A stretch of 64,000 nt of DNA from a virus, in IMG/VR virus record IMGVR_UViG_3300027969_000043, positions 32,001-96,000 of that record. One strand, given 5' to 3'. Positions 1-34,174 of this stretch are shown here, in pieces. A program made the translations under genes and the position numbers. Under the pieces are notes generated by a model. It ran no database searches. It was given only the letters and a program-made list of their open reading frames with translations, and was not told where the DNA came from. Position 1 is the first letter of the stretch. Every line of letters begins with the position of its first letter.

Positions 1-3000
1 GGTAAATCTTACCAGTTAATTGATTTCTATCGATATCTTCTGGGTCGTTACTTAAAACAACTCTGAAATCTACTAAACCTCTTTCGGTTCTAATGCTATC
101 CAATATTGGATTAACAAGTGACAAGAATTGATTTCTTACGATAGTATCATTTTGTTCGAACAACAATCTAATAGCCACAGCAGAGATAAGTTTTCTAGCT
201 TGTAAAAGAAGTCTTCTAACATTGATTCTGTCAAGAGCACTTTCTTTAACTTGTAGTGTTTTATTACCCCAAATCTTAATACCATCAGATGTAAATGTTG
301 CGATTGGGTTGATTCTATTTTCGTAAAGAACATCTCTTTCACTTAAAGTTAACTTCTTACGAGCTTTAAGAGCGTCAACGTCACCTCTTTGAATACCTGC
401 TACTGCGAACCAAGGGAATGCTATGTTATCAGTCAAAGCGATGTTTCTCACAACGTCTCTTGTTGGTGGAACGTAAACATACACATTGTTCTCAGCATCA
501 AGGATTTGAATCCAAGGCCAGTATGTTGCTGTGTAGCTACTATCATACATATCTGATAATTGGTCTGTTACGTCACCAACTGTTAATACTGTTCCTGCAG
601 AATCGGTATCAGGCGTTGTTACAACATATAAAGAGTCAGCTCTGTCTTGCTCAATCATTTCGATACTAGCTTCAACAAGATTTGTGTTATCAAACGTATC
701 AATACCAGGCGTAGCAAACACATTAACATTTACAGCCTCTGGGTTTTTAAATGTCCAGATACCCTCTAAGTAAGCGTAGTAATCAGATGTAATACCTAAA
801 TCACCGTTAGTTAGAGTTTTGTTTGCAAACGTACCTACTGCTAAACCAGCAGCACCCTTGGTACCATTGATAGTAAAGCTATCTAAGTTAGTTCTTCTTG
901 TTCTGTAAGGGTCGAAACCGTCGAATCCGCCATAAGGTGCAAAAGTAAATTTACGAGCGTACACTTTCTCATATGGGCCGTTAGCTAAACCAGCGTCAGT
1001 TCTAAACTGCCAGTCACCAGTATCAAATAAGAATATTGGACTATATGTGTTACCTGAGTTATCAATAACAACTTTAACATTGTCAATTGTAGCACCTGTA
1101 GCGTCGATATCCATGTGGAAACCTTTGGTTAAACCAGTCCACATATCATAATCTTGTCCAACAGGTATACCTTTGTAATCAAAGAAATCAGCGTCTATAC
1201 CTATTGTATTAGATAAACCTAAATAGTATTTACGTTTGTTTTCAAAAGCGCCATATTTTTGCTTATACATTATGCTTGGTGTTTGAACATCAGGGTTAGA
1301 GTTAATTTCATAATCTCTAACTGGGAATCCAACAAAACCAGCTGGGAATGCATCACTTGTATCAGAACTTTCATCAAGTTCAAGTAAAATGTGAGCAGAT
1401 TTTGATGCATATACACCATCTAATGTACCGATTCTTCTAGCAACAAAGTTGTTTGAAGTTGGGTCCATTGTACAACGTGTGTAAGCTTCGATGATATTAG
1501 GTGCCGCATCTGTATCATAAAAACCTCTTACCAATACATCAAACTCTCTTGTATCTGGTTTAATGTTAGCAATTGAAATTTTATATTGTTCGTTTGCTGC
1601 GTTACCGTCAGATATTGTCCAAATTCTAAATAATCTTAACAATTTATTACCTCTTAATTCTGATACAACATAAGGTGTAACAGCTGGTTGGTATTCTTGT
1701 AAGTAGTCAGAGTATTGACCAGCGTAGTCGATAATATCTAAATTGATACCTCTAACTTTACCATCATTAACATACTCAACAAACATTTTATCAAAGAATT
1801 CTTCAACGTATACTGCAGTTTCACCATCTAAAGCAGTTCTACCAAGAACTTTTGTTATGTAATTTCTTTGTGTTCTATCGAAAGAGCAATCATAAGAGAA
1901 TGCACCCTGTGTATTTGATGTACCAATTAAAGCGAATGAACCGTAAGGGTTTTGTTCTGCTGTGGTAATGCTTGAATTAAAATTCAATCCTGTTGTTGCA
2001 CTAACTTGGAATACTGGTAATTGAGTTTGAGCATTAACTTTACCTCTAGAACGAAGCAAAGTAATTAATTTATCCTCAACATCTGCGTATCCTTTACCAA
2101 CAGTATATGTTGTAAAACCAGATGTTGTACCTGTTTTATACATTGATATTGAAGTACCTGAGTAATAGTTTACAACTGCTGATGTTGTACCAGTATTATA
2201 AAACAAACCAGTACCTGAATATACACCTGTAAAACCAGATGTTGTACCTGTTCTATAAACTGTTAATGGGTCACCAGAGAAGTAGAATACATTACCAATA
2301 GTTGTACCTGTTTTATAGTTAATACCAGAACCAGAATAGAATGTTGTAACACCTGAGGCTTGGCCTGATATGTATGCTGCTGTTTGAGCGCCACTATACT
2401 GTATTGTAAATCCAGATGTTGTACCTGAGATAAGTCTAGTGTTTGAAGCACCAGTATAATATTGAATATACCCACTTGTCAAACCAGTATAAATATTTGG
2501 TGTTGATGTTGAACCTGTACTTAAAATAATTGCAACACCATAAACACCAACATAAGTTGTTGCATTTATTGCGGTATAAGAACTAGGAACACCTTGTACA
2601 CTATATAGTAATCCAACACCAGTTCCAGGTGAATTTTTTAAACCAAAATAATTACCTTGCAATATTCCAGCGGTTTCCATTGTATTATATGGTTCACTAG
2701 TTGTTAAATAAGTAACATTTACAGTGCTAGATGTTGTAGCGGCAGTAAATCGTATAAATGAACTAATAAGTGGTGTTGCTCCGCTAAAACCTACCGAACT
2801 TTGATTTAAACTTTGTGGTGTTACACCAGAAGTTGCTGCAGAGAATACCGCAGAAGCACCAACATAAGATGAACCGCTTTGTACAAAACTAAGAGGTACA
2901 CTAAACGATGTACCAACTGGTGCACCACTAAACAATGTGGCTAAACTAAAGTTATTAGCAACATACATTGCATTAAGAACATTGTTATTAATAACATAAC

Positions 3001-4831
3001 TTGTGCTGTTTGTTATTGGGTTTGTTTGATAAGTAATTAACGGATTAGCATTTATAGGGGTGGCAACACCACCTGTAGCACCAGTAGTTGTTGTATTAAT
3101 TGCTGCTGGAACAGTTACTTTACTTACAATAATATAACTTGAAGAAGCACCAGTATAAACCGCACCAGAACCTGTCATAACAAAAGGAATTACACCTCTA
3201 ACACCAGAATTTAACCCAGGTAATGAAGCTAAACTAAATAAAGAAGCGCCATAAAATGCACTTGTTAATGGGTCTGAAATTACAGTATTTGTTAATGAAC
3301 CACTAGTTGTTGCTGTATATCTAATTAATGGGTTATAGTTTGCTGTTGTTGAAACACCAGTACTAGATGCATTGAAATAGTATGGTGTAATACCTGTTTG
3401 TGATACAGTATATGTTGAACTAGCACCAGTAAAAATTGAACCGTTATAAATAAATGATAAAGGTATTGTACTAGTTGTACCAGTTGCTGTTGCGGGTAAT
3501 CCGCTAAGACTAATATTACCAGCTTGGTATAAACTATTAGTTAATGGGTCTGCAATAGTTGCGGTAATTAATGTATTACCAGTTGTTGCTGTATAATTTA
3601 TAAATGGTACAAAACTACCACTAGTTGTAGCCGCAGTTGTTGTTGTATTAATACCACTTTGCGTTAAGCCAGTGGCAATTACAACGTAGTTAGATTCATT
3701 ACCAGTAAAACTAGTACCTACGTTTACATAGTTTCTAGCTATTGAACCAGTCGCACCAACTGCCAAGCTAGATAACCCAGTTAAACTAAAATTTGAGTTA
3801 TTATAACCAGCATTTGTATTTGGCTCGTTGATTTGAACAGCAGAAAGAACACCACCAGTTGTTGATGTATAAACAATAAATGGATTTGTATTTGCGCTAC
3901 TAATTAAAGCAACACTAGCAGCACTTAAAGTCATTGTTGTTGTACCAGCAGAAATAAGTGTATAAACTGCACCAGCACCACTATAATTTGAACCACCAAC
4001 ATTTATAAATGAATTAGAAATAACATCAGATTGACTTATTGTTAGACTAGGCAATGTACTAAGACTAAAATTACCGTTGTTATAAAGGCTTGATAATAGA
4101 GTATCATTTATAGTTACTGTTACCAAATTATTTGAGGCGTCTGCTGTAAATGATGCAAATGGGAGGATACTTACATTTGTTAGTGTTGCACCTGTAGTTG
4201 TTGGGTCTAACACATTTGGTGTTGAACCAGCGTTAACAACCAACAATTGACTGCTAGCACCTGTAAATAAACCACCAACTTTTTCTAGCGAAACACTCAA
4301 CGATAATATTTGACCATTTGTTAATGTTGGTAACAAAGCTAAACTAACACTACCATTGTTAACTAAATAACTTAATAATGGGTCACTAATAGTTGTACCT
4401 ATTAATACGTTAGAGTTTGTTGCAGTATATACAATACTAGGATTATACGAGCTTGTTGTTGCTGTTATTGTTGAATTATCCAAAGCAGCATCCATCGTTA
4501 TACCCCAAGCTTTACCTGCATCATAACCAGAAAAACCAAGAATTCTTGTTACAAATAATTGGTTTGATTGTGATAGATATGATTTTGCGATATATGGTAA
4601 TTCATACAAAGGTGCGCCGTTTCCGTCTGGACCGTTTACCAATGTATTATTTAAACCACCGAAAAACGATTGAAACTCGCCGTAGTTACTTACGAAAATA
4701 GGTTGAAATGCTGGTCCTTTGGTTGTTTCACCCACCAAACCCAATGTCGTAACACCTACTTGACGTGTTACAAATGTTAAGTCTTTTTCTGAGGTGTAGA
4801 CACCTGGACTAACGAATACTTTTTCTGCCAT
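1..4831 (-). CDS. Contractile tail sheath protein (T4 gp18-like), >1610 aa; 3' end lies beyond the left edge of the window; absent from the ORF track
   Basis: Manual translation from ATG at 4831 gives MAEKVFVSPGVYTSEKDLTFVTRQVGVTTLGLVGETTKGPAFQPIFVSNYGEFQSFFGG... In the same frame near the left edge: ...PWFAVAGIQRG...ERDVLYENRINPIATFTSDGIKIWGNKTLQVKESALDRINVRRLLLQARKLISAVAIRLLFEQND...RGLVDFRVV. These are typical sheath N- and C-terminal motifs. Confidence 0.95.
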   Translation of the reverse strand, partial: MAEKVFVSPGVYTSEKDLTFVTRQVGVTTLGLVGETTKGPAFQPIFVSNYGEFQSFFGGLNNTLVNGPDGNGAPLYELPYIAKSYLSQSNQLFVTRILGFSGYDAGKAWGITMDAALDNSTITATTSSYNPSIVYTATNSNVLIGTTISDPLLSYLVNNGSVSLALLPTLTNGQILSLSVSLEKVGGLFTGASSQLLVVNAGSTPNVLDPTTTGATLTNVSILPFASFTADASNNLVTVTINDTLLSSLYNNGNFSLSTLPSLTISQSDVISNSFINVGGSNYSGAGAVYTLISAGTTTMTLSAASVALISSANTNPFIVYTSTTGGVLSAVQINEPNTNAGYNNSNFSLTGLSSLAVGATGSIARNYVNVGTSFTGNESNYVVIATGLTQSGINTTTTAATTSGSFVPFINYTATTGNTLITATIADPLTNSLYQAGNISLSGLPATATGTTSTIPLSFIYNGSIFTGASSTYTVSQTGITPYYFNASSTGVSTTANYNPLIRYTATTSGSLTNTVISDPLTSAFYGASLFSLASLPGLNSGVRGVIPFVMTGSGAVYTGASSSYIIVSKVTVPAAINTTTTGATGGVATPINANPLITYQTNPITNSTSYVINNNVLNAMYVANNFSLATLFSGAPVGTSFSVPLSFVQSGSSYVGASAVFSAATSGVTPQSLNQSSVGFSGATPLISSFIRFTAATTSSTVNVTYLTTSEPYNTMETAGILQGNYFGLKNSPGTGVGLLYSVQGVPSSYTAINATTYVGVYGVAIILSTGSTSTPNIYTGLTSGYIQYYTGASNTRLISGTTSGFTIQYSGAQTAAYISGQASGVTTFYSGSGINYKTGTTIGNVFYFSGDPLTVYRTGTTSGFTGVYSGTGLFYNTGTTSAVVNYYSGTSISMYKTGTTSGFTTYTVGKGYADVEDKLITLLRSRGKVNAQTQLPVFQVSATTGLNFNSSITTAEQNPYGSFALIGTSNTQGAFSYDCSFDRTQRNYITKVLGRTALDGETAVYVEEFFDKMFVEYVNDGKVRGINLDIIDYAGQYSDYLQEYQPAVTPYVVSELRGNKLLRLFRIWTISDGNAANEQYKISIANIKPDTREFDVLVRGFYDTDAAPNIIEAYTRCTMDPTSNNFVARRIGTLDGVYASKSAHILLELDESSDTSDAFPAGFVGFPVRDYEINSNPDVQTPSIMYKQKYGAFENKRKYYLGLSNTIGIDADFFDYKGIPVGQDYDMWTGLTKGFHMDIDATGATIDNVKVVIDNSGNTYSPIFLFDTGDWQFRTDAGLANGPYEKVYARKFTFAPYGGFDGFDPYRTRRTNLDSFTINGTKGAAGLAVGTFANKTLTNGDLGITSDYYAYLEGIWTFKNPEAVNVNVFATPGIDTFDNTNLVEASIEMIEQDRADSLYVVTTPDTDSAGTVLTVGDVTDQLSDMYDSSYTATYWPWIQILDAENNVYVYVPPTRDVVRNIALTDNIAFPWFAVAGIQRGDVDALKARKKLTLSERDVLYENRINPIATFTSDGIKIWGNKTLQVKESALDRINVRRLLLQARKLISAVAIRLLFEQNDTIVRNQFLSLVNPILDSIRTERGLVDFRVVLSNDPEDIDRNQLTGKIY
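2087..4483 (-). repeat. In-frame nested repeat insertion in the sheath: 7 units of about 92 aa followed by 7 units of about 19-20 aa
   Basis: Long units start near 4483, 4213, 3931, 3655, 3379, 3103 and 2812. Their consensus is P.I.YTAT..N.L....I.DPL...LY..GNFSL..LP.L..G....I..SF...G..FTGASS.Y.V...G.T. Short units span 2087-2494 with consensus Y.TGTTSG.T.YYSG. Confidence 0.85.
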
Positions 4832-5600: not shown

Positions 5601-6611
5601 TTACCATGTATAAACCCTTACTTCACCACGACCACCAGTACCACCAGCACCACTATTTCCAGTGTTGGTAGCATTACCACCACCACCACCTCCACCACCA
5701 CATGCACCACCATTTCCTCCTGCTTCACCGTTAATATTACCAGAAGCAGCCGCAGCACCCCCACCACCACCACCACCATTACCACATTTTATGGAATTTC
5801 CGCTAGCACCTGTACTACCAGATGTTGGCGCTGTTGAACTATTAGCCCCAGGTGCAGAACCACCACCTGAAATATATGACCCCGAAGTGCCACCAGAAGT
5901 CGGAGCAACACCAACATTACCACTACCAGTACTACCACCAACACCACCGCCACCAGCACCAAATATCGAACTACCCCCATCTTTAGGGATAAGGTTAGTA
6001 ACACCTCTAGAACCGCCAGAGCCACCACCATATTCAGCGTTTCCACTACCTAAACCAGCTGTACTAGAACCTAGTCCAGACGCTCCTTGACCACCTATAG
6101 CTATTAAAGATGCTACTCCAGGTACCCCACCACCGTATGTTGCAGTTGTAGTAATACCACTTAAACCAGCACCACCATTACCACCACCACCACCACCAAC
6201 CTGAGCTGTCGTTGCTGACAAACCACCAATACCACCACCACCAGCATAACCAATTAATTGTGTTGCTCCAGAACTAAAAAAAGAGTTTTCACCATTACCA
6301 CCACCTCTTCCAATACCAGAAATAGTTACACTAGCCCCACCAATACCGCCAGAACCAACAAATATTGGTTCTGTACTAGACAACGTACTTGCTAAATAAA
6401 ATTTTTCAGCATATGCGCCACCACCACCACCAGTCCCACCCGTTCTATTATTACCGTTGTTTGCTTTTGCGCCACTACCACCTCCACCCCCAGCACCAAT
6501 ACATACAACATATACGAATTTTGCACCTGTCGGTTTTACCCAAGTCGAATTACCAACAGTTGTAAACACCTGTAAATCTGGTACTTCGTTTATATTATTA
6601 TTTATTGCCAT
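5601..6611 (-). CDS. Glycine-rich (polyglycine-II bundle type) virion adhesin, paralog 3
   Basis: Repeated GGGGG tracts separated by variable loops. Conserved ends QVFTTVGNSTWVKPTGAKFVYVVCIGAGGGGG and GGRGEVRVYTW. Confidence 0.75.
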   Translation of the reverse strand: MAINNNINEVPDLQVFTTVGNSTWVKPTGAKFVYVVCIGAGGGGGSGAKANNGNNRTGGTGGGGGAYAEKFYLASTLSSTEPIFVGSGGIGGASVTISGIGRGGGNGENSFFSSGATQLIGYAGGGGIGGLSATTAQVGGGGGGNGGAGLSGITTTATYGGGVPGVASLIAIGGQGASGLGSSTAGLGSGNAEYGGGSGGSRGVTNLIPKDGGSSIFGAGGGGVGGSTGSGNVGVAPTSGGTSGSYISGGGSAPGANSSTAPTSGSTGASGNSIKCGNGGGGGGGAAAASGNINGEAGGNGGACGGGGGGGGNATNTGNSGAGGTGGRGEVRVYTW

Positions 6612-6623
6612 AATTATTTTTTT

Positions 6624-7610
6624 TTAAAAAGTATACACTCTTACTTCACCACGACCACCAGCACCACCATTACCAGCACCAATATCCGCACCACAACCAC
6701 CTCCACCACCTCCACCGCCTGCACCGCCTACACCACCATTACCACCTATTGTGTTTGGTGTTATTGTTCCACCACCACCACCACCACCAACACCATATGA
6801 AGTACCTGTACCACCTGATGTTGGTGATGCACCATTTGTACCGCCTGAAGCACCACCACCAACAACATAAGAACGACTAGTACCGCCTGAGGTTGAATTT
6901 ACAAGTATAGTACCAAGATAATTTGAGGTTCCACCAGCACCACCACCGCCACCACCAAATAATGATGAACCTCCAGGACCAATTGCTGGTGTAAGACTAC
7001 CATCATGACCACAACCACCTCCACCACCATATTCAGTTAAACCTCCATTAGTTGGGTTACTACCACCACTTGCCCCCGTACCACCAATACAAGTTTGAGC
7101 CACTACAGGGCTTACTGCGGCATAACCTGGTTGCCCTCCAATAGCAACCAATGAATCACCAACACTACCAGCCCCACCAGTACCACCACCACCACCACCA
7201 CCAGCACCTATATCAATACCACCTCTAGCACCACCACCACCACCATAACTAACCAAATATGTTGTTGCACCTGTACCAAAAAAAGAACTACCACCAATTC
7301 CACCAGATGTTGTTGACCCTGAAAGTCCACTGGTACCACCAGTACCACCAGCACCTACAACAATAGGCACCGTGTTAGCTAAATCACTTGCACTAAATAC
7401 TTTATAAGCAAAAGCACCACCACCACCACCAGCACCACCCCATTTAGGTGCTGTTCCTAAAGAGTATGAAGCACCACCACCACCTCCACCAGCACCAATA
7501 CACACAACATATACGAATTTTGCACCAGTCGGTTTTATCCATGTCGAACTACCAACAGTTGTAAACACCTGTATGTTTCTTGCAGAATTTATACTATTAT
7601 TTATTGCCAT
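6624..7610 (-). CDS. Glycine-rich virion adhesin, paralog 2
   Basis: Same architecture and conserved termini as its neighbours. Confidence 0.75.
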   Translation of the reverse strand: MAINNSINSARNIQVFTTVGSSTWIKPTGAKFVYVVCIGAGGGGGGASYSLGTAPKWGGAGGGGGAFAYKVFSASDLANTVPIVVGAGGTGGTSGLSGSTTSGGIGGSSFFGTGATTYLVSYGGGGGARGGIDIGAGGGGGGGTGGAGSVGDSLVAIGGQPGYAAVSPVVAQTCIGGTGASGGSNPTNGGLTEYGGGGGCGHDGSLTPAIGPGGSSLFGGGGGGAGGTSNYLGTILVNSTSGGTSRSYVVGGGASGGTNGASPTSGGTGTSYGVGGGGGGGTITPNTIGGNGGVGGAGGGGGGGGCGADIGAGNGGAGGRGEVRVYTF

Positions 7611-7623
7611 TTTTAATTTATTA

Positions 7624-8616
7624 TTACCACGAATAAACCCTTATTTCACCGCGACCACCAGCACCGCCAGTGCCACCACTGCTAGCACGTGTACCGCCCC
7701 CACCACCTCCACCACCGCCACCAGGCGCACCACCAACACCACCATTAGTACCTGCTGTATTTAAAGTTGCGGTTCCACCGCCACCTCCACCTCCATCGCC
7801 AGAACCATTACCTTTATTTGTACCTGTTCCACCCGAAGTTGGTGATATACCACTTGTTCCAAAAGCACCACCCGTAATACCAGTATAAGTACCTGAACTT
7901 CCGCCTGGTTTTGCGTCATAAACAGTCGGTACGCTATTTGCACCTCCACCAGCACCGCCTCCGCCACCACCATATAATGAACATCCGCCTGAAAAATTAA
8001 TACCAGTCGTCGAAGTTCCACCACCCCCAGCACCACCATATTGAGCAGCACCACCCGACGGAGCAGCAATTGTTCCAGCGCCACCAGTGCCACCAAAAGC
8101 TAAAGTGGTTGTACTTGCTCCTGCTGGATTACCACCTGCAACAGCGGCACCAGCACCAGCAGCACCAACACTAACAGTACCACCTCCACCACCACCTGAA
8201 TTAGAAACTGCCGTAACTCTACCCCCAGCACCAGAACCACCTCCATAGGCTGTTAATATTGTTAAACCTGAACTAAATATTGAATTACCACCTGTAGAAC
8301 CAATAACACCTACGTTAGAGGCATTACCAGCACCACCCGCACCACCAGTCCCACCCGAGGCAACTGTAATTGGTTCTGATAACGATAACTCCGAGGCTAA
8401 GTAAAGTTTTGAAACAAAAGAAGCCCCTCCACCGCCACCACCACCCATTCTATATGTTGCTCCAGATGCTGAACCTCCGCCACCTCCGCCACCTCCGCCA
8501 CCAATACATTCAACATACACGAATTTAACCCCAACGGGTTTTATCCAAGTATTAGAACCTACGGACGTAAATATTTGAACGTTTGAAACTTCATTTATAC
8601 TATTATTTACTGCCAT
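7624..8616 (-). CDS. Glycine-rich virion adhesin, paralog 1
   Basis: Same architecture: MAVNNSINEV...GGRGEIRVYSW. Confidence 0.75.
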   Translation of the reverse strand: MAVNNSINEVSNVQIFTSVGSNTWIKPVGVKFVYVECIGGGGGGGGGGSASGATYRMGGGGGGGASFVSKLYLASELSLSEPITVASGGTGGAGGAGNASNVGVIGSTGGNSIFSSGLTILTAYGGGSGAGGRVTAVSNSGGGGGGTVSVGAAGAGAAVAGGNPAGASTTTLAFGGTGGAGTIAAPSGGAAQYGGAGGGGTSTTGINFSGGCSLYGGGGGGAGGGANSVPTVYDAKPGGSSGTYTGITGGAFGTSGISPTSGGTGTNKGNGSGDGGGGGGGTATLNTAGTNGGVGGAPGGGGGGGGGGTRASSGGTGGAGGRGEIRVYSW

Positions 8617-8623
8617 AAAACAA

Positions 8624-9745
8624 TTAATTTAATGTTATCGTACCTACCGCAGATACCACAGTAAATACCGTATTTGCACTAGTACAAACTAATCTAATAG
8701 AATCACCATTATTTTGTGAAACTAATGTACCTGATGTTTGTGTTGTCGTTATAATACCAAATCTTATAAATTGATTTACGTTTTGTGTTATTGTAAATAA
8801 ACTATCTGACGCTGAAACAACTTCAATAACACTACCCAAGCTTGCGGATACTGGCAAATTAATTAATGTTGTGCCTGTTGTTATATATCCATTATTAGTT
8901 GATGCTGTTATTGGAGACGTTGCAAATTGCCATGTTAATCCACCACTACCAGTACTAAAACCTGTTATTGTGTTTCCATTAACATTTCCCGTTCCACTTA
9001 ATGTGATTGTTCCGTTAGAATATGTTCCACCTGTAACAGCATTAACATTTTGATATGTTGTTGCTGATATTGTATTTGCTGTTAACCCACTAATAAATGA
9101 TGTTGCACCACTAACTGTACCACCTGTAAAAGATGTTGCTGTATTTGTACTAAAACCTGTAATTTGTATTCCGTTAACACCACCACTACCACTAAGCGTA
9201 AGCGTTCCGTTTAAATAAGAACCACCTGTAACAGCACTAATGGTGTAAGTAACTGCCGCACTACTATTTGATGTAACACTCAATACATTACCTGATAGTG
9301 TAGTTGCACTAATATAAGTAGGTAAATTAAGATACGTTGTTGCACTTATTGTATTTGCCGTTAATCCTGATAATAAAGTATTACCTGTAACATTTAATGT
9401 GTTTGCGGTTAATCCCGATTGGAATATTGTATTTCCCGTTACCGTACCCCCACTTAATGGGAGATACGCTCCCGACGTAGATGAACTACCCGTATATGCG
9501 GACAGGCTTATTGTAAATGCAGAATACTGTCCTGTTATATTTTGCCTTAAAGTTATTGTATTACTAGATAACGTAAACCCCGTAACAAACGTATCAGTTG
9601 TAACTGGTAAGTTAAGATATGTTGTTGCAGATAACGTATTTGCTGTCAGACCACTAACAATTATATTGTCAAAATTACCACTAGCGTTTAACTGCGGATA
9701 CCCATATGGCTGATTAGCCCTATCTAATGTTATTATTGTCTTCAT
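8624..9745 (-). CDS. Short tail fibre/adaptor with shared S/T/G modules and a C-terminal gp9/gp10-like beta-sandwich
   Basis: Contains GLTANTISATTY and DTFVTGFTLSSNTITL modules. The C-terminus is LTWQ...NNGY...INLP.SASLGSVIEVV...GDSIRLVC...FTVVSAVGTIT. Confidence 0.65.
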   Translation of the reverse strand: MKTIITLDRANQPYGYPQLNASGNFDNIIVSGLTANTLSATTYLNLPVTTDTFVTGFTLSSNTITLRQNITGQYSAFTISLSAYTGSSSTSGAYLPLSGGTVTGNTIFQSGLTANTLNVTGNTLLSGLTANTISATTYLNLPTYISATTLSGNVLSVTSNSSAAVTYTISAVTGGSYLNGTLTLSGSGGVNGIQITGFSTNTATSFTGGTVSGATSFISGLTANTISATTYQNVNAVTGGTYSNGTITLSGTGNVNGNTITGFSTGSGGLTWQFATSPITASTNNGYITTGTTLINLPVSASLGSVIEVVSASDSLFTITQNVNQFIRFGIITTTQTSGTLVSQNNGDSIRLVCTSANTVFTVVSAVGTITLN

Positions 9746-29425: not shown

Positions 29426-32400
29426 TTAATCATAAACTCTTATTTCTATCACAGTATAATAGGTATCGCCAAATACCCTATCTGAGGTTGCCTTAGCTAC
29501 TTGTATTTTACTTGAATCTACAAAATTGGTAAACATAAAACCATAAGTAGCTACTGTTATATCACCCCCACCCTTAGATACACCACATGTAGCAAAAATT
29601 GCCGTTTTATCAGTAGTAAATGGTGTACCAGTAGATGCGCTAATTGTTATTACTTTTACACTCCTATCGTAAACTACACCAATTGTTGTGTTAAGTTCAT
29701 TTTCTAAAACAATAGGATAACCAGCAGTCATATTATTTCCAGAATCTATATCAACCGCCGCAACATATCTTTTATAAGGGTTTATTGTTCTCCACATAGT
29801 ACCATCATACAACTGGAGACCAGCATATCTCCTTGTAGGAGTACTTCCAGAGGCATCTGAATGAACAATAAGTCCTTTTGCTGGACTACTTGGCAAATCT
29901 CCACTACCTACTCTTGGTGGTAAAAAACCTTTAGATGTTGATGTTAAATCTAATATCGCACTAGAATTTGGTTTATTAATGCCAATACTTACAGCACTAC
30001 CAGTAATTGCGGTAAATATTGAACTTGAAACATCGTTTGAATTACATCCAGTCCCAAATAAAACACCACCTATATTAAACGAATTTACTGTACCCGAACT
30101 TAATGTTATATTAGTACCAATAATAATATTATTGTTACCAAATCCACCACTAGAAGCAGCTTTACTACCTATTATGATACTTGAGTTAGATGTTGTTCCG
30201 CTACCAGCACTAGGGCCAATAATTATTGTGGATGCGGCTGTTTTTACATTCAACCCCGCATTAACACCAATTGCTATCATGTTATCACTAGTACCAACAC
30301 CAGACCCAGCTAAATTTCCAATAAAAATACCATTAGTTGTACCTGTTACACCTTCACCAGAATTACTACCAATAAAAATACCCCTGTCAGCACCTGTTGA
30401 ATTCTTACCAGCATCAGCACCAATCATAACTGCATTTGGGGCGATATCACCAGCATTACCAGCATTACTTCCAATCATAACTGCGGTACTAGAACCATTT
30501 GCTCCGACACCAGCATTAGTACCAATAAAAACAGAACCACTAGAAGTATGAGCTAATTCACCAGCACTAGTACCAATATACACCCCATTTAGGCTTGTAC
30601 TACCCGTAATACCCCTAGCTGTTCCATTACCTATGATTACAGATGATGTTGAATTTACCGAGCTTTGACCTGCTTGGTATCCTATATATACACCCTTATC
30701 GTTATTTGAGGATGATTTAAGAGCCTCATACCCAATAGCAATACTATATTCTGATTTACCCGTTAAATTGGTGGAATTATCACCAGCACTTCGACCAATA
30801 AATGTTGAACCACTAGCACTTGTTGCATTTTTACCAGCGTCCTCACCAATAAATAGTGAGTAGCTAGCGTTAGTTGCACCACTACCAGCATTTTTACCTA
30901 TAAAAGCCGAACTAGTAACAGAGCTAGCACTCCAACCAGCACCAGAACCAGCAAAGAATGAATAAGTTGCACCAGTAGCACCTTTACCAGCGCTAACGCC
31001 AAAAAATTGAGAATTATTAGCAGATGTTGCACCATAACCCGCCTGACTACCAATCATTATTGAGTTATTTGCGCTAGTACCACCTAATCCACTTTGTGTA
31101 CCAATAAATGTTGAATTACTAGCGCTACTAGCATTAGAACCAGCACCAACACCAATAAATGTTGAATTATTAGCGTTACTGGATTGATAACCAGCTTGGT
31201 CACCGATAAATAAAGAATTATCGGCAAAAGTTGCACCAAAACCACTTCTATCACCAATAAATGTTGAACCACTAGCGTTAGTGGCTGATGTACCAGCGCT
31301 TAAACCAAATACAAACATACTGCTAGCTAAAGCTTTAGCTCCATTACCAAAAGCTATAGAACCAGTACCTGTAGCTACTGGAATAACAGCAGGTGGTGTA
31401 TTATTTTCATCGTACCAATAAAGTGTTGCACCAATATTACCAAGAACATTACCACCAGTTATATCAGTAATGCTCTTAAACGAAACACTTCCGTTAGATT
31501 CTCTTGTTAATAACTGAGGAGCTGTAGTACCACTAGAAATACCAGATAATGTTAATGTATTTGCAGTTAAACCACTAGTAAATACCGTACCACCACTTAC
31601 TGTTCCACCACTTAATGGAAGATAAGCACCTGAAGCAGACGACGAACCTGTATACGCAGATAGGCTTATTGTAAATGCTGAATATCCGTCTGTTCTATTT
31701 TGAGTTAAGGTTATTGTATTTGATGATAACGTAAACCCTGTTACAAAAGTATCTGCAGTAAGATTACCACCACCTATATCATTAATGTTTTTAAATGAAA
31801 CATTTCCGTTAGATTCTCTTGTTAATACCTGAGTAGCAGTAGCAGCACTAGAAATACTAGACAATGTTACATCACCACCAAAATATGTTGTACCTGTTTG
31901 AACCTTTAACGCATATGTATCACCTGATACATTAGACCCCTTTATTGGTGCACCAGCAATGTATACGTTACTTAAAGCACTATACGTAACACCAGATGTA
32001 ACACCAGTATAATATGTTGTAGAACCTGTTGTTATACCTGTAAAAAACCCAGGGTCGGTTAAACCTGTTTGAGCAACAATTTGCGAATACGAAACGCCCC
32101 TATATCCTGTACTAGTTGCGCTTAATATTTCCCCTAATGACGATGCGGTTCCAGCACTTGATGTGCTCAAACTAGGTAATGCAAACAAACTAGCATTATA
32201 AAAATTACTAAGTAAAGAATCGTTTATTGTTATTGATAGAACAGTACCACCAGTAGTAGCAGCTGAATAATACATCAAATAACTTGATAATGTTGTATAA
32301 TTTTGGGTGCTTGTAATTAATGTTGTATTAGCACTAAATGTTGGAATATTAAAACTATTAGCCACTATCTCACTACGTGTTGCTGGTGTAGCAGTACTAT

Positions 32401-34174
32401 TTGCCTCAGTATATACAGCGCTTTTAATATTAAGAGCGGAACCAGCTGTACCCCAAAAACTCCTTATTGGGTTTGGCGGTCCAACAGTACTAGTTTCATT
32501 TATAACCACCTGCCCACCAAAAGCGGCAACTGGTGCGGAAAATGTAAGAACACCGTTACTATTTAAAAACTTAGAATTTGGTCTATCAAGATGCGACATT
32601 ACCAAATCGTTGTTATATGGTTTATTTCTAAATACAAACATTTTGGAAGGGTCTGGATATTGATTACTAAGACCACCACCACCTGCATTATATGACGTTT
32701 CAAAATATAGTCCTAATGGGGCAGCTGGAGAGTAAATAACAGCCCTAGAAGTACCAAAATTTATCGCTGGGAATGAAGAAGGTAAAAATAAAGTACCCGT
32801 ACCCGAAGCACCTTGTGAATATGTAAAATCAGCGTTAGTTGTAATTTGATTAGAACTAAAAAATGGTATCCTACCAGTTGTAGCAGAAAATGCACGTAAT
32901 ACACCATTTGTATCAACACTCGTAAGATACGTATCAGCTGATATACCCGCTAATCCTTGAAATCTAACTGGGTTTGTTGTTGCGGTTACATGTAGTGTAT
33001 TGGTTCCCGATAAAACACCAATACCAACAGTTCCACCAGTACTAACCGTTAAAGCATTTGGTATTGTCGAAGAACTAAAGTTTAATGTTTTTTGATTTAA
33101 ATCAACAACCCTATTACCGTTTAAAGCACCGTCACTAGTATATAAGGTATTAATGCTTGAAGCGACTGTTGAAGTAAGTGAAGCAACAGAAATTGAATGT
33201 ACCACACCAACATTGTCAATTGTTAAAACATTTGAATCAGAAGAACCTCCTATACCCTCAATTCTAATTGGGTCAGTAGCTGCCGAAATATGTAATTTTG
33301 TACTAGCCGATAAAACACCAATACCAACTGTACCACCAGTACTAATTGTTAAACTGTTTGGCGCTGTTGATGAACTAAAATTTAATGTTTTTTGGTTTAA
33401 GTCAACACGCCTATCTGATTTTATTGAATCATCTTTACCATACAGTGTTGTTATACCTGTAATACTTAAATTTTTACTTGGGTCAGTAAAATCTAGCGCA
33501 ATTGAAGCACCTGTTTGATTATATGTTGCAGCTGTTGTATATATGTTTGTATAACCTGCAGTAAATCCAGTAACAATAAATACACCACGAGAACTAATTG
33601 GCCTCCAATTAGCTGTATCCCCACTAGGTGGTGTTGGGTTTGCACTAACATTTGCGATTGAGTAGTAATCTAAATTATTAACAGTATATGTAACAACAGT
33701 ACTAGCTGTGTATGCAGAAGATGCGTTCCAGTTACCAGCATAAAATAAACCAGTACGGGTATTTGTTGTGCTTGATGAAAACGTAACAATACCGTTTAAA
33801 GAATTATAAGTACCACCTGTAACGGTCACGTCTGAAGCCAACGAGCTAAGATTTTTTGTTATCCCACCACCAAATGTGTTTAATGTCAAATCATAACTCC
33901 CAAGGTCCCAAGTTAATCCTGTAACCATTTGTATTTGACTCCATGTTGTGTTACCACTATTTAATACGTAATAATCATTAAATGCGCCATTTTTAACACC
34001 AACAATCATTCCCGCTCTTCTTCTTTCAGAAGGTATTTCATTCCTAGCAGTAATATCATTAACATTTCTTAAACTATCAACACCATAAACTGGGTCAATA
34101 ACCGCATAAGTATCTTGGGTATCTGTTGGTGATATAAATCCAGTTATGCGTACTCCGCCATCTATAGTTGCCAT
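29426..34174 (-). CDS. Long tail fibre, 1582 aa, with YadA-head-like (xSxFIGxxAG) repeats and a CBM5/12-like insert
   Basis: More than 25 repeats of about 14 aa (NSTFIGxxAG), shared fibre modules, and C-terminal STSKGFLPPRV. Confidence 0.8.
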   Translation of the reverse strand: MATIDGGVRITGFISPTDTQDTYAVIDPVYGVDSLRNVNDITARNEIPSERRRAGMIVGVKNGAFNDYYVLNSGNTTWSQIQMVTGLTWDLGSYDLTLNTFGGGITKNLSSLASDVTVTGGTYNSLNGIVTFSSSTTNTRTGLFYAGNWNASSAYTASTVVTYTVNNLDYYSIANVSANPTPPSGDTANWRPISSRGVFIVTGFTAGYTNIYTTAATYNQTGASIALDFTDPSKNLSITGITTLYGKDDSIKSDRRVDLNQKTLNFSSSTAPNSLTISTGGTVGIGVLSASTKLHISAATDPIRIEGIGGSSDSNVLTIDNVGVVHSISVASLTSTVASSINTLYTSDGALNGNRVVDLNQKTLNFSSSTIPNALTVSTGGTVGIGVLSGTNTLHVTATTNPVRFQGLAGISADTYLTSVDTNGVLRAFSATTGRIPFFSSNQITTNADFTYSQGASGTGTLFLPSSFPAINFGTSRAVIYSPAAPLGLYFETSYNAGGGGLSNQYPDPSKMFVFRNKPYNNDLVMSHLDRPNSKFLNSNGVLTFSAPVAAFGGQVVINETSTVGPPNPIRSFWGTAGSALNIKSAVYTEANSTATPATRSEIVANSFNIPTFSANTTLITSTQNYTTLSSYLMYYSAATTGGTVLSITINDSLLSNFYNASLFALPSLSTSSAGTASSLGEILSATSTGYRGVSYSQIVAQTGLTDPGFFTGITTGSTTYYTGVTSGVTYSALSNVYIAGAPIKGSNVSGDTYALKVQTGTTYFGGDVTLSSISSAATATQVLTRESNGNVSFKNINDIGGGNLTADTFVTGFTLSSNTITLTQNRTDGYSAFTISLSAYTGSSSASGAYLPLSGGTVSGGTVFTSGLTANTLTLSGISSGTTAPQLLTRESNGSVSFKSITDITGGNVLGNIGATLYWYDENNTPPAVIPVATGTGSIAFGNGAKALASSMFVFGLSAGTSATNASGSTFIGDRSGFGATFADNSLFIGDQAGYQSSNANNSTFIGVGAGSNASSASNSTFIGTQSGLGGTSANNSIMIGSQAGYGATSANNSQFFGVSAGKGATGATYSFFAGSGAGWSASSVTSSAFIGKNAGSGATNASYSLFIGEDAGKNATSASGSTFIGRSAGDNSTNLTGKSEYSIAIGYEALKSSSNNDKGVYIGYQAGQSSVNSTSSVIIGNGTARGITGSTSLNGVYIGTSAGELAHTSSGSVFIGTNAGVGANGSSTAVMIGSNAGNAGDIAPNAVMIGADAGKNSTGADRGIFIGSNSGEGVTGTTNGIFIGNLAGSGVGTSDNMIAIGVNAGLNVKTAASTIIIGPSAGSGTTSNSSIIIGSKAASSGGFGNNNIIIGTNITLSSGTVNSFNIGGVLFGTGCNSNDVSSSIFTAITGSAVSIGINKPNSSAILDLTSTSKGFLPPRVGSGDLPSSPAKGLIVHSDASGSTPTRRYAGLQLYDGTMWRTINPYKRYVAAVDIDSGNNMTAGYPIVLENELNTTIGVVYDRSVKVITISASTGTPFTTDKTAIFATCGVSKGGGDITVATYGFMFTNFVDSSKIQVAKATSDRVFGDTYYTVIEIRVYD

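Follow-up and report, generated by a model that had tools for sequence, protein, structure and literature searches.

The stretch of viral DNA analysed here, 64,000 nucleotides of the IMG/VR virus record IMGVR_UViG_3300027969_000043 (positions 32,001 to 96,000, hereafter the window), begins on its minus strand with the gene of a tail sheath protein, in which an insert of ~800 residues, corresponding to 49% of the chain, is placed between two strands of the sheath middle domain. The insert consists of seven homologous long units (A1 to A7) that are followed by seven short units (b1 to b7, Table 1), and we regard it as likely that the two series constitute one domain nested seven deep within itself, short unit b(8-k) closing long unit A(k). 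The open reading frame (ORF) spans positions 2 to 4831 and is open at the window edge; its final 26 codons and the stop are found within 80 nt beyond, and the full-length gene (product P0002) has been taken from the parent IMG/VR record, which comprises 120 kb and is rated ~34% complete. A first-pass annotation, made from the letters of the window, had stated that the ORF list misses this gene entirely. The gene is indeed unlisted; its ORF continues past the start of the window, and by default the list omits ORFs with an open end.

The sheath gene and its repeat units

Judged from its sequence, the 1636-residue product is a sheath protein for the contractile tail of an uncultivated jumbo phage. 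Profile searches with the sheath protein have matched phrog_23 (tail sheath, E 3.6e-48) and phrog_10581 (E 5.7e-30), and tblastn with the sheath sequence P0001 has retrieved the annotated sheaths of many myoviruses. The Pfam family PF04984, whose match corresponds to the sheath C-terminus, has scored 28.2 bits on the window-truncated protein, just below the cut-off of 31.4, and appears as a precomputed match of the full-length protein. A relative that carries only one copy of each unit (P0013) has been matched, across its C-terminal ~310 residues, to solved T4 gp18-type sheath structures (E 2e-33 to 2.4e-30); beyond the termini, the searches have yielded no sequence match to T4.

The long units align over ~92 residues with pairwise identities of 20-43%, A7 being the outlier at 20-27%, and a hidden Markov model (HMM) built from single-copy relatives only has detected A1 to A6 at E 3e-6 to 1e-17. 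The short units comprise ~15 residues each and follow one another between residues 780 and 912 at a spacing of 19-20. A loose motif derived for them occurs six times in this segment and nowhere else in the sheath protein, and in 20,000 composition-preserving shuffles the mean number of occurrences has been 0.05 and the maximum 2. Both series had been claimed in the first-pass annotation: the homology of the seven ~92-residue long units, which begin at the residues listed in Table 1, has been confirmed, and every flanking and short-unit string that it quoted has been recovered in its place.

Table 1. Features of the sheath gene and of a further copy of its inserted domain, with positions in the window.
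Feature	Residues	Position	Strand	Remarks
Tail sheath gene	1636 aa	1..4831	-	ATG at 4831; product P0002
Sheath N-terminal core	1-116	4484..4831	-	Final strand leads into the insert; conservation 0.96 (11 orthologs)
Long unit A1	117-206	4214..4483	-	Proposed outermost (basal) level
Long unit A2	207-300	3932..4213	-	
Long unit A3	301-392	3656..3931	-	
Long unit A4	393-484	3380..3655	-	
Long unit A5	485-576	3104..3379	-	
Long unit A6	577-673	2813..3103	-	
Long unit A7	674-775	2507..2812	-	Proposed tip; most divergent; indels among orthologs
Short unit b1	776-795	2447..2506	-	Contiguous with A7; least conserved short unit
Short units b2-b7	796-913	2093..2446	-	Period 19-20; proposed return strands closing A6...A1
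Remaining sheath	914-1610 (in window)	2..2092	-	Further middle domains and conserved C-terminal sheath domain
Single A+B domain copy	~625-730 of 1582-aa fibre-like P0275	31985..32302	-	E 8.5e-13, single-copy profile

The single-copy domain and copy numbers among relatives

The key to the insert is provided by ~110 related sheath clusters of 899-959 residues, in which one long unit (A) is directly followed by one short unit (B) between the same two conserved sheath strands. AlphaFold2 has modelled this single-copy domain from 114 sequences with high confidence (predicted local distance difference test score, pLDDT, 91.7; predicted template modelling score, pTM, 0.80) as an alpha/beta unit with two helices and long strands, in which a first strand leads to two short strands, a helix, a pair of long strands and finally B. 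The last strand of A (local residues 92-108) and B (111-127) are modelled as a hairpin of 17+17 residues whose A|B junction is a 2-residue turn, with a pLDDT of 93-97 for the B strand. Mean-field couplings calculated from the same alignment follow the register of this hairpin (91-127, 106-116, 103-117, 96-122) and tie B to inner strands as well (36-117, 34-119, 29-119, 22-123, 20-127). According to model and couplings, A and B of the single-copy relatives are one domain in which B is an integral strand and not a linker, and the predicted A sheet would be open without it. The strands of A to which B couples are retained in A1 to A6 of the sevenfold protein. The strongest coupling of the single-copy domain connects two co-varying cysteines across the base of the hairpin (local 91 and 127), which may form a disulfide.

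With regard to fold, structure alignments of the single-copy model have pointed to a generic longin/roadblock/PAS-like arrangement (Z 3.5-6) that spans residues 28-121 and includes B as the last sheet strand, located between two others. The best structural match, 5a1u_F, has reached a Z of 6.0 with a root-mean-square deviation of 2.8 over 67 residues, a value too low to tell relatives apart from a merely common arrangement. No significant match to the single-copy domain has been obtained by Foldseek (PDB, BFVD) or by shape search of the ESM Atlas, a profile search of PDB sequences has been empty even at E <= 10, no Pfam family has been found on the repeat unit, and no Ig-like (immunoglobulin-like) match is present among the structural matches listed for the domain.

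The copy numbers of the two units differ among relatives. Sheaths of ~800-820 residues are without A and without B (0+0), and the two flanking sheath strands are joined in them by a short loop; as these forms carry neither unit and the single-copy forms carry both, A and B are best regarded as one inserted module. A 5+5 form is represented by a single cluster with 5 full-length members (P0278, 1433 residues), and the 7+7 form has been found in 11 out of 11 orthologous clusters (1635-1653 residues, insert identity 54-93%). Unequal numbers of long and short units have not been recognised among the retrieved proteins and 80 IMG/VR loci; the combined short-unit HMM is insensitive at its threshold, and raw counts such as (1,0) or (6,6) are artefacts of this sensitivity and not mismatches. 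The co-variation of both counts (0+0, 1+1, 5+5, 7+7) is the pattern that the first-pass annotation had proposed to look for in sheath homologs, and neither of the outcomes that it had named as speaking against nesting has been encountered, as the short unit of single-copy relatives is a modelled strand of the A sheet instead of an independent fold, and the two counts are equal instead of unrelated.

Within the sheath family the 80 sampled IMG/VR loci have yielded only the 0+0 and 1+1 forms and a variant class of ~1060 residues (L054-L080), which is common and contains an enlarged and distantly related version of the module (~190 residues) that agrees with it in the terminal hairpin and in the motif of its closing strand. 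That the ~1060-residue class keeps the terminal hairpin, together with the absence of both units from 0+0 sheaths, indicates that B belongs to the insert. A search of IMG/VR for relatives of the 5+5 insert has found none, and one-to-one orthology between units of the 5+5 and 7+7 proteins is visible for the outermost pair only. In one further relative (P0018), A (residues 114-194) and B (residues 392-408) are split by ~185 unrelated residues at the tip of the hairpin, which demonstrates that the hairpin tip tolerates insertion. In P0017 (1144 residues), an Ice_binding-like domain (PF11999, E 3e-15, residues ~120-330) is inserted near the start of the single A, so that here, too, the module serves to carry a surface domain.

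Proposed nested pairing and competing readings

From these observations a scheme can be derived in which the building block is the alpha/beta domain of ~112 residues that occurs once in most relatives. The chain would lead outward through A, reverse in the tight hairpin, and return as one long strand B, which would be flanked by the final strand of A and one of its inner strands. At the hairpin tip, the complete domain would be accommodated once more, and repetition of this step would end with seven stacked domains. The termini of the module are adjacent, because a sheath hairpin is where the module has been inserted, and its own hairpin tip is exposed; with copies placed at this tip again and again, the order would be A1...An, then the closing strands in reverse, with equal counts of both. 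Folding would proceed from the tip (A7+b1) towards the base, with each domain awaiting its closing strand. The first-pass annotation had proposed the same order, A1..A7-B7..B1, instead of a tandem array. This reading is supported, in that A and B of single-copy relatives form one modelled domain and the two counts are equal, whereas the mirrored pairing of unit k with unit 8-k inside the 7+7 protein we infer mainly from topology and the count rule, with weak statistics beside them.

The statistics that lean towards the mirrored assignment are of two kinds. Interaction energies computed from the single-copy couplings at four preset cut-offs have ranked it 174, 81, 52 and 59 among the 5040 possible assignments, and 6-23 of 720 when the tip was left out, with the parallel assignment at chance. 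Co-substitution among the orthologs has placed it at ranks 111-427 of 5040, largely via A7-b1.

Several results weigh against the nested arrangement and have to be set beside these ranks. Statistically, the signal for the pairing is weak (p about 0.01-0.1 in 7+7) and comes in part from A7 and b1, which are contiguous; the top-scoring assignment in the energy test is not the mirror, and the same test on the 5+5 protein has given no signal (rank 31-63 of 120). The similarity matrices of A with A and of b with b, compared under mirroring, have yielded r = 0.49 (rank 581 of 5040), which is not significant and is tip-driven, and the similarity of the units to the single-copy profile is not mirrored except for A7/b1. 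An AlphaFold2 model of the whole insert (residues 100-930, 11 orthologs) is unusable at a pLDDT of 39 and a pTM of 0.23. The first strand of each A resembles B, and hmmalign puts it on the B columns. Finally, forms with 2+2, 3+3, 4+4 or 6+6 units have not been found in very large collections, which leaves the path of growth unsampled.

If the A units were self-sufficient domains in tandem, like beads on a string, and the short units a separate beta-meander or solenoid that brings the chain back, there would be no explanation of why the two counts agree in the 1+1, 5+5 and 7+7 forms. In the single-copy domain, moreover, B is a confidently modelled integral strand that is coupled to two different A strands, the strands concerned are kept in A1 to A6, and the b units retain the B motif and are conserved like buried elements. 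Seven strands of 15 residues with linkers of 4-5 residues could nevertheless make a meander, and the whole-insert model is uninformative on this point, so that we consider such an arrangement unlikely but not negligible. Another reading is a daisy chain, in which each A(k) has its B slot taken by the first strand of A(k+1); b1 would then close A7 alone, and b2 to b7 would serve some other role. The first strand of A(k+1) does come directly after the last strand of A(k), A first strands and B are both Thr/Gly-rich, and in an hmmalign alignment to the single-copy profile the start of A2 falls on the B columns. The single-copy domain, by contrast, has its first strand and B at different places in the sheet, and b2 to b7 would be roleless despite being well conserved and always equal in number to A; on balance the chain appears quite improbable to us.

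A third possibility is an intermolecular exchange, with the b array of one subunit closing the A array of its neighbour and thereby adding an outer mesh to the sheath. Sheath neighbours are known to exchange strands (PMC10811340), as in the handshake of N- and C-termini, but here A7 and b1 are contiguous, for which a zipper within one chain is the simplest solution, the single-copy form closes within one chain, and seven levels would demand very long reaches; we hold this to be very unlikely. That the array is an artefact, either a misassembled repeat or a decaying pseudogene, deserves consideration in so far as repeats in metagenomes are prone to misassembly. The units are merely 20-43% identical in protein, however, the 7+7 form recurs in 11 clusters on separate contigs at 54-93% identity with intact frames, and most of the gene is under purifying selection. 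Misassembly has been rejected on the grounds of unit identity, recurrence and intact frames, and the probability left to an artefact of either sort is close to nil.

The proposed tip and tail arm, and known sheaths

If the seven domains are nested as proposed, A7 with b1 would form the tip of an arm, and it is here that the gene has changed most. Conservation across the 11 orthologs is lowest for A7 (0.34) and b1 (0.48), compared with 0.64-0.77 for A1 to A6 and 0.74-0.78 for b2 to b7; the latter are thus conserved at least as well as the long units, as expected of buried closing strands. In the 5+5 form as in the 7+7 form, no long unit is larger or more divergent than the innermost one, and the earlier prediction that the most divergent unit, A7, would sit at the tip agrees with its conservation as well as with its low identity to the other units (20-27%). 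Compared with the closest ortholog, A7 shows 19 non-synonymous and 3 synonymous differences, with an omega of ~2.1 that comes from one pair and 22 differences, is not itself significantly above 1, and to this extent counts against the picture of a diversifying tip; other regions lie at 0.03-0.17, and the substitution classes of A7 differ from those of A1 to A6 (Fisher p = 1.5e-5). The tip therefore shows strongly relaxed or diversifying evolution, which falls short of proven positive selection, in a sheath gene that is for the most part under purifying selection.

The composition of the insert is distinctive too. It contains 1.8% D+E, 1.5% K+R and 31.5% S+T, in comparison to 12.3%, 9.1% and 14.2% in the core, and the 7+7 insert has zero Cys and zero His. 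Given the mirrored pairing, each subunit would be equipped with a fairly stiff, nearly uncharged, Ser/Thr-rich arm of domains connected by two strands, which projects from the sheath surface. The fast-evolving tip is probably surface-exposed and a putative site for binding a ligand or the host surface. Radial projection and rigidity of the arm are a guess on our part, and an adhesive tail with a bottle-brush morphology is what we would hypothesise from it.

Insertion of outer domains is a familiar trait of phage sheaths. In the T4 sheath protein, long insertions break up the conserved part (Evseev et al. 2022, PMC9230969), and the present protein belongs to the same family at its N- and C-termini, with outer domains likewise inserted in loops of inner ones, so that the chain runs out and back. 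The nested domains of the T4 sheath are few and mutually unrelated, whereas here one domain is apparently nested in itself seven times. In the same survey, 'type 3' sheaths of large phages have been described with 'five and more' domains, mostly Ig-like, whose number rises with genome size; their outer domains face away from the tube, and some of them are composed of an N-proximal and a returning C-proximal region (PMC9230969). In contrast to these, the module of the 1636-residue sheath is alpha/beta in the model and probably not Ig-like. Self-nesting of one module is not contained in that survey, where the words 'repeat' and 'inserted' are absent and 'duplication' refers to gene copies only (PMC9230969). 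In Agrobacterium phage Milano, the sheath extension domain (SED) of gp20, residues 91-203, lies externally and is inserted in the body domain (PMC10811340); it is comparable in chain position and similar in size to the module, but is present as a single copy, unlike the seven found here. No sequence or structural match between the module and the Milano gp20 extension domain has turned up in our searches, a result that is inconclusive, and no solved outer sheath domain (T4 domain I, the Milano SED and similar) appears among the Foldseek PDB, VIA-wide and VIA matches, with a relationship staying conceivable.

Outside the sheaths, two functional analogies may be drawn. In flagellin, the subunit of a helical polymer, the chain passes out through the domains D0-D1-D2-D3 and back again, and the outermost exposed part is hypervariable; its levels, however, are different folds and not copies of one domain. 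The streptococcal adhesin P1 (AgI/II) projects a head on an out-and-back stalk, similar to the proposed arm, and in this stalk the N-side and C-side repeats occur in matched numbers. In P1, a bacterial surface protein unrelated in sequence, helices are paired with polyproline helices, and there is no returning strand that closes a sheet.

The genes around the sheath gene are those of a tail. The tail tube gene (phrog_4542, E 4.9e-26; L003:2366-2854, minus strand) is located downstream, as is a gene for the baseplate hub (phrog_150), and upstream are glycine-rich fibre-like genes. In the parent record (L003) a 507-residue homing/HNH endonuclease (phrog_3339, E 6e-107; L003:6347-7870, minus strand) is located directly after the sheath gene and before the tail tube gene, and at the ortholog locus L004 the sheath gene is followed by genes for 135 and 897 residues. 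Within the window, four neighbouring paralogous ORFs of 336, 328, 330 and 373 residues occupy positions 5601-9745 on the minus strand, with a guanine-plus-cytosine (GC) content of 0.43-0.49 against ~0.33 in the surroundings and a strong GC skew; glycine is extremely abundant in the one that was translated. Matches to phrog_863 (tail fibre assembly) have been obtained for three of these ORFs, two of which also match phrog_754 (minor tail protein), and the 373-residue ORF matches nothing.

The module itself is found beyond the sheath. One A+B copy is part of a fibre-like protein of the same phage (P0275, Table 1), whose gene covers positions 29429-34174 of the minus strand and which has further internal repeats together with an extended region of Gly/Ala/Ser-rich repeats, and another copy occurs in a 745-residue protein (P0279) on the contig of an ortholog. 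From these two copies it follows that the module is common to the sheath and other virion proteins.

Implications

Growth of sheaths by domain insertion has been known before; as far as our literature searches go, the new part is the recursion of one homologous module to seven copies (five in a relative) with a countable n+n signature, and no description of a seven-deep self-insertion of one domain in a sheath has been found in the literature. The jump from one copy to five and seven without intermediates, and the origin at the DNA level of a duplication that is nested and not tandem, constitute an unexplained evolutionary pattern. At its most far-reaching, the picture is one in which all of the hundred-plus subunits bear stiff uncharged arms of seven domains, tens of nanometres in length and with a diversifying host-binding tip, so that the whole tail would act as a multivalent adsorption organelle whose arms fold from tip to base, and in which recursive self-insertion at a hairpin tip would be a general route, hitherto undescribed, by which phages make long rigid appendages out of one small module; taken as a whole, we think this rather doubtful, and put it forward only tentatively.

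Should the nested architecture itself hold, nature would have supplied a case in which a domain is nested recursively and the number of units obeys an inherent rule, n long ones being matched by n short ones. It would pose a folding problem in which closure is possible only from the inside out, and it would offer a principle by which stiff protein rods could be designed with a length that can be adjusted. For the phage, a strikingly thick or bristled tail would be predicted, and, because evolution of the gene is far faster in the tip unit than elsewhere, the sheath surface may have a role in adsorption.

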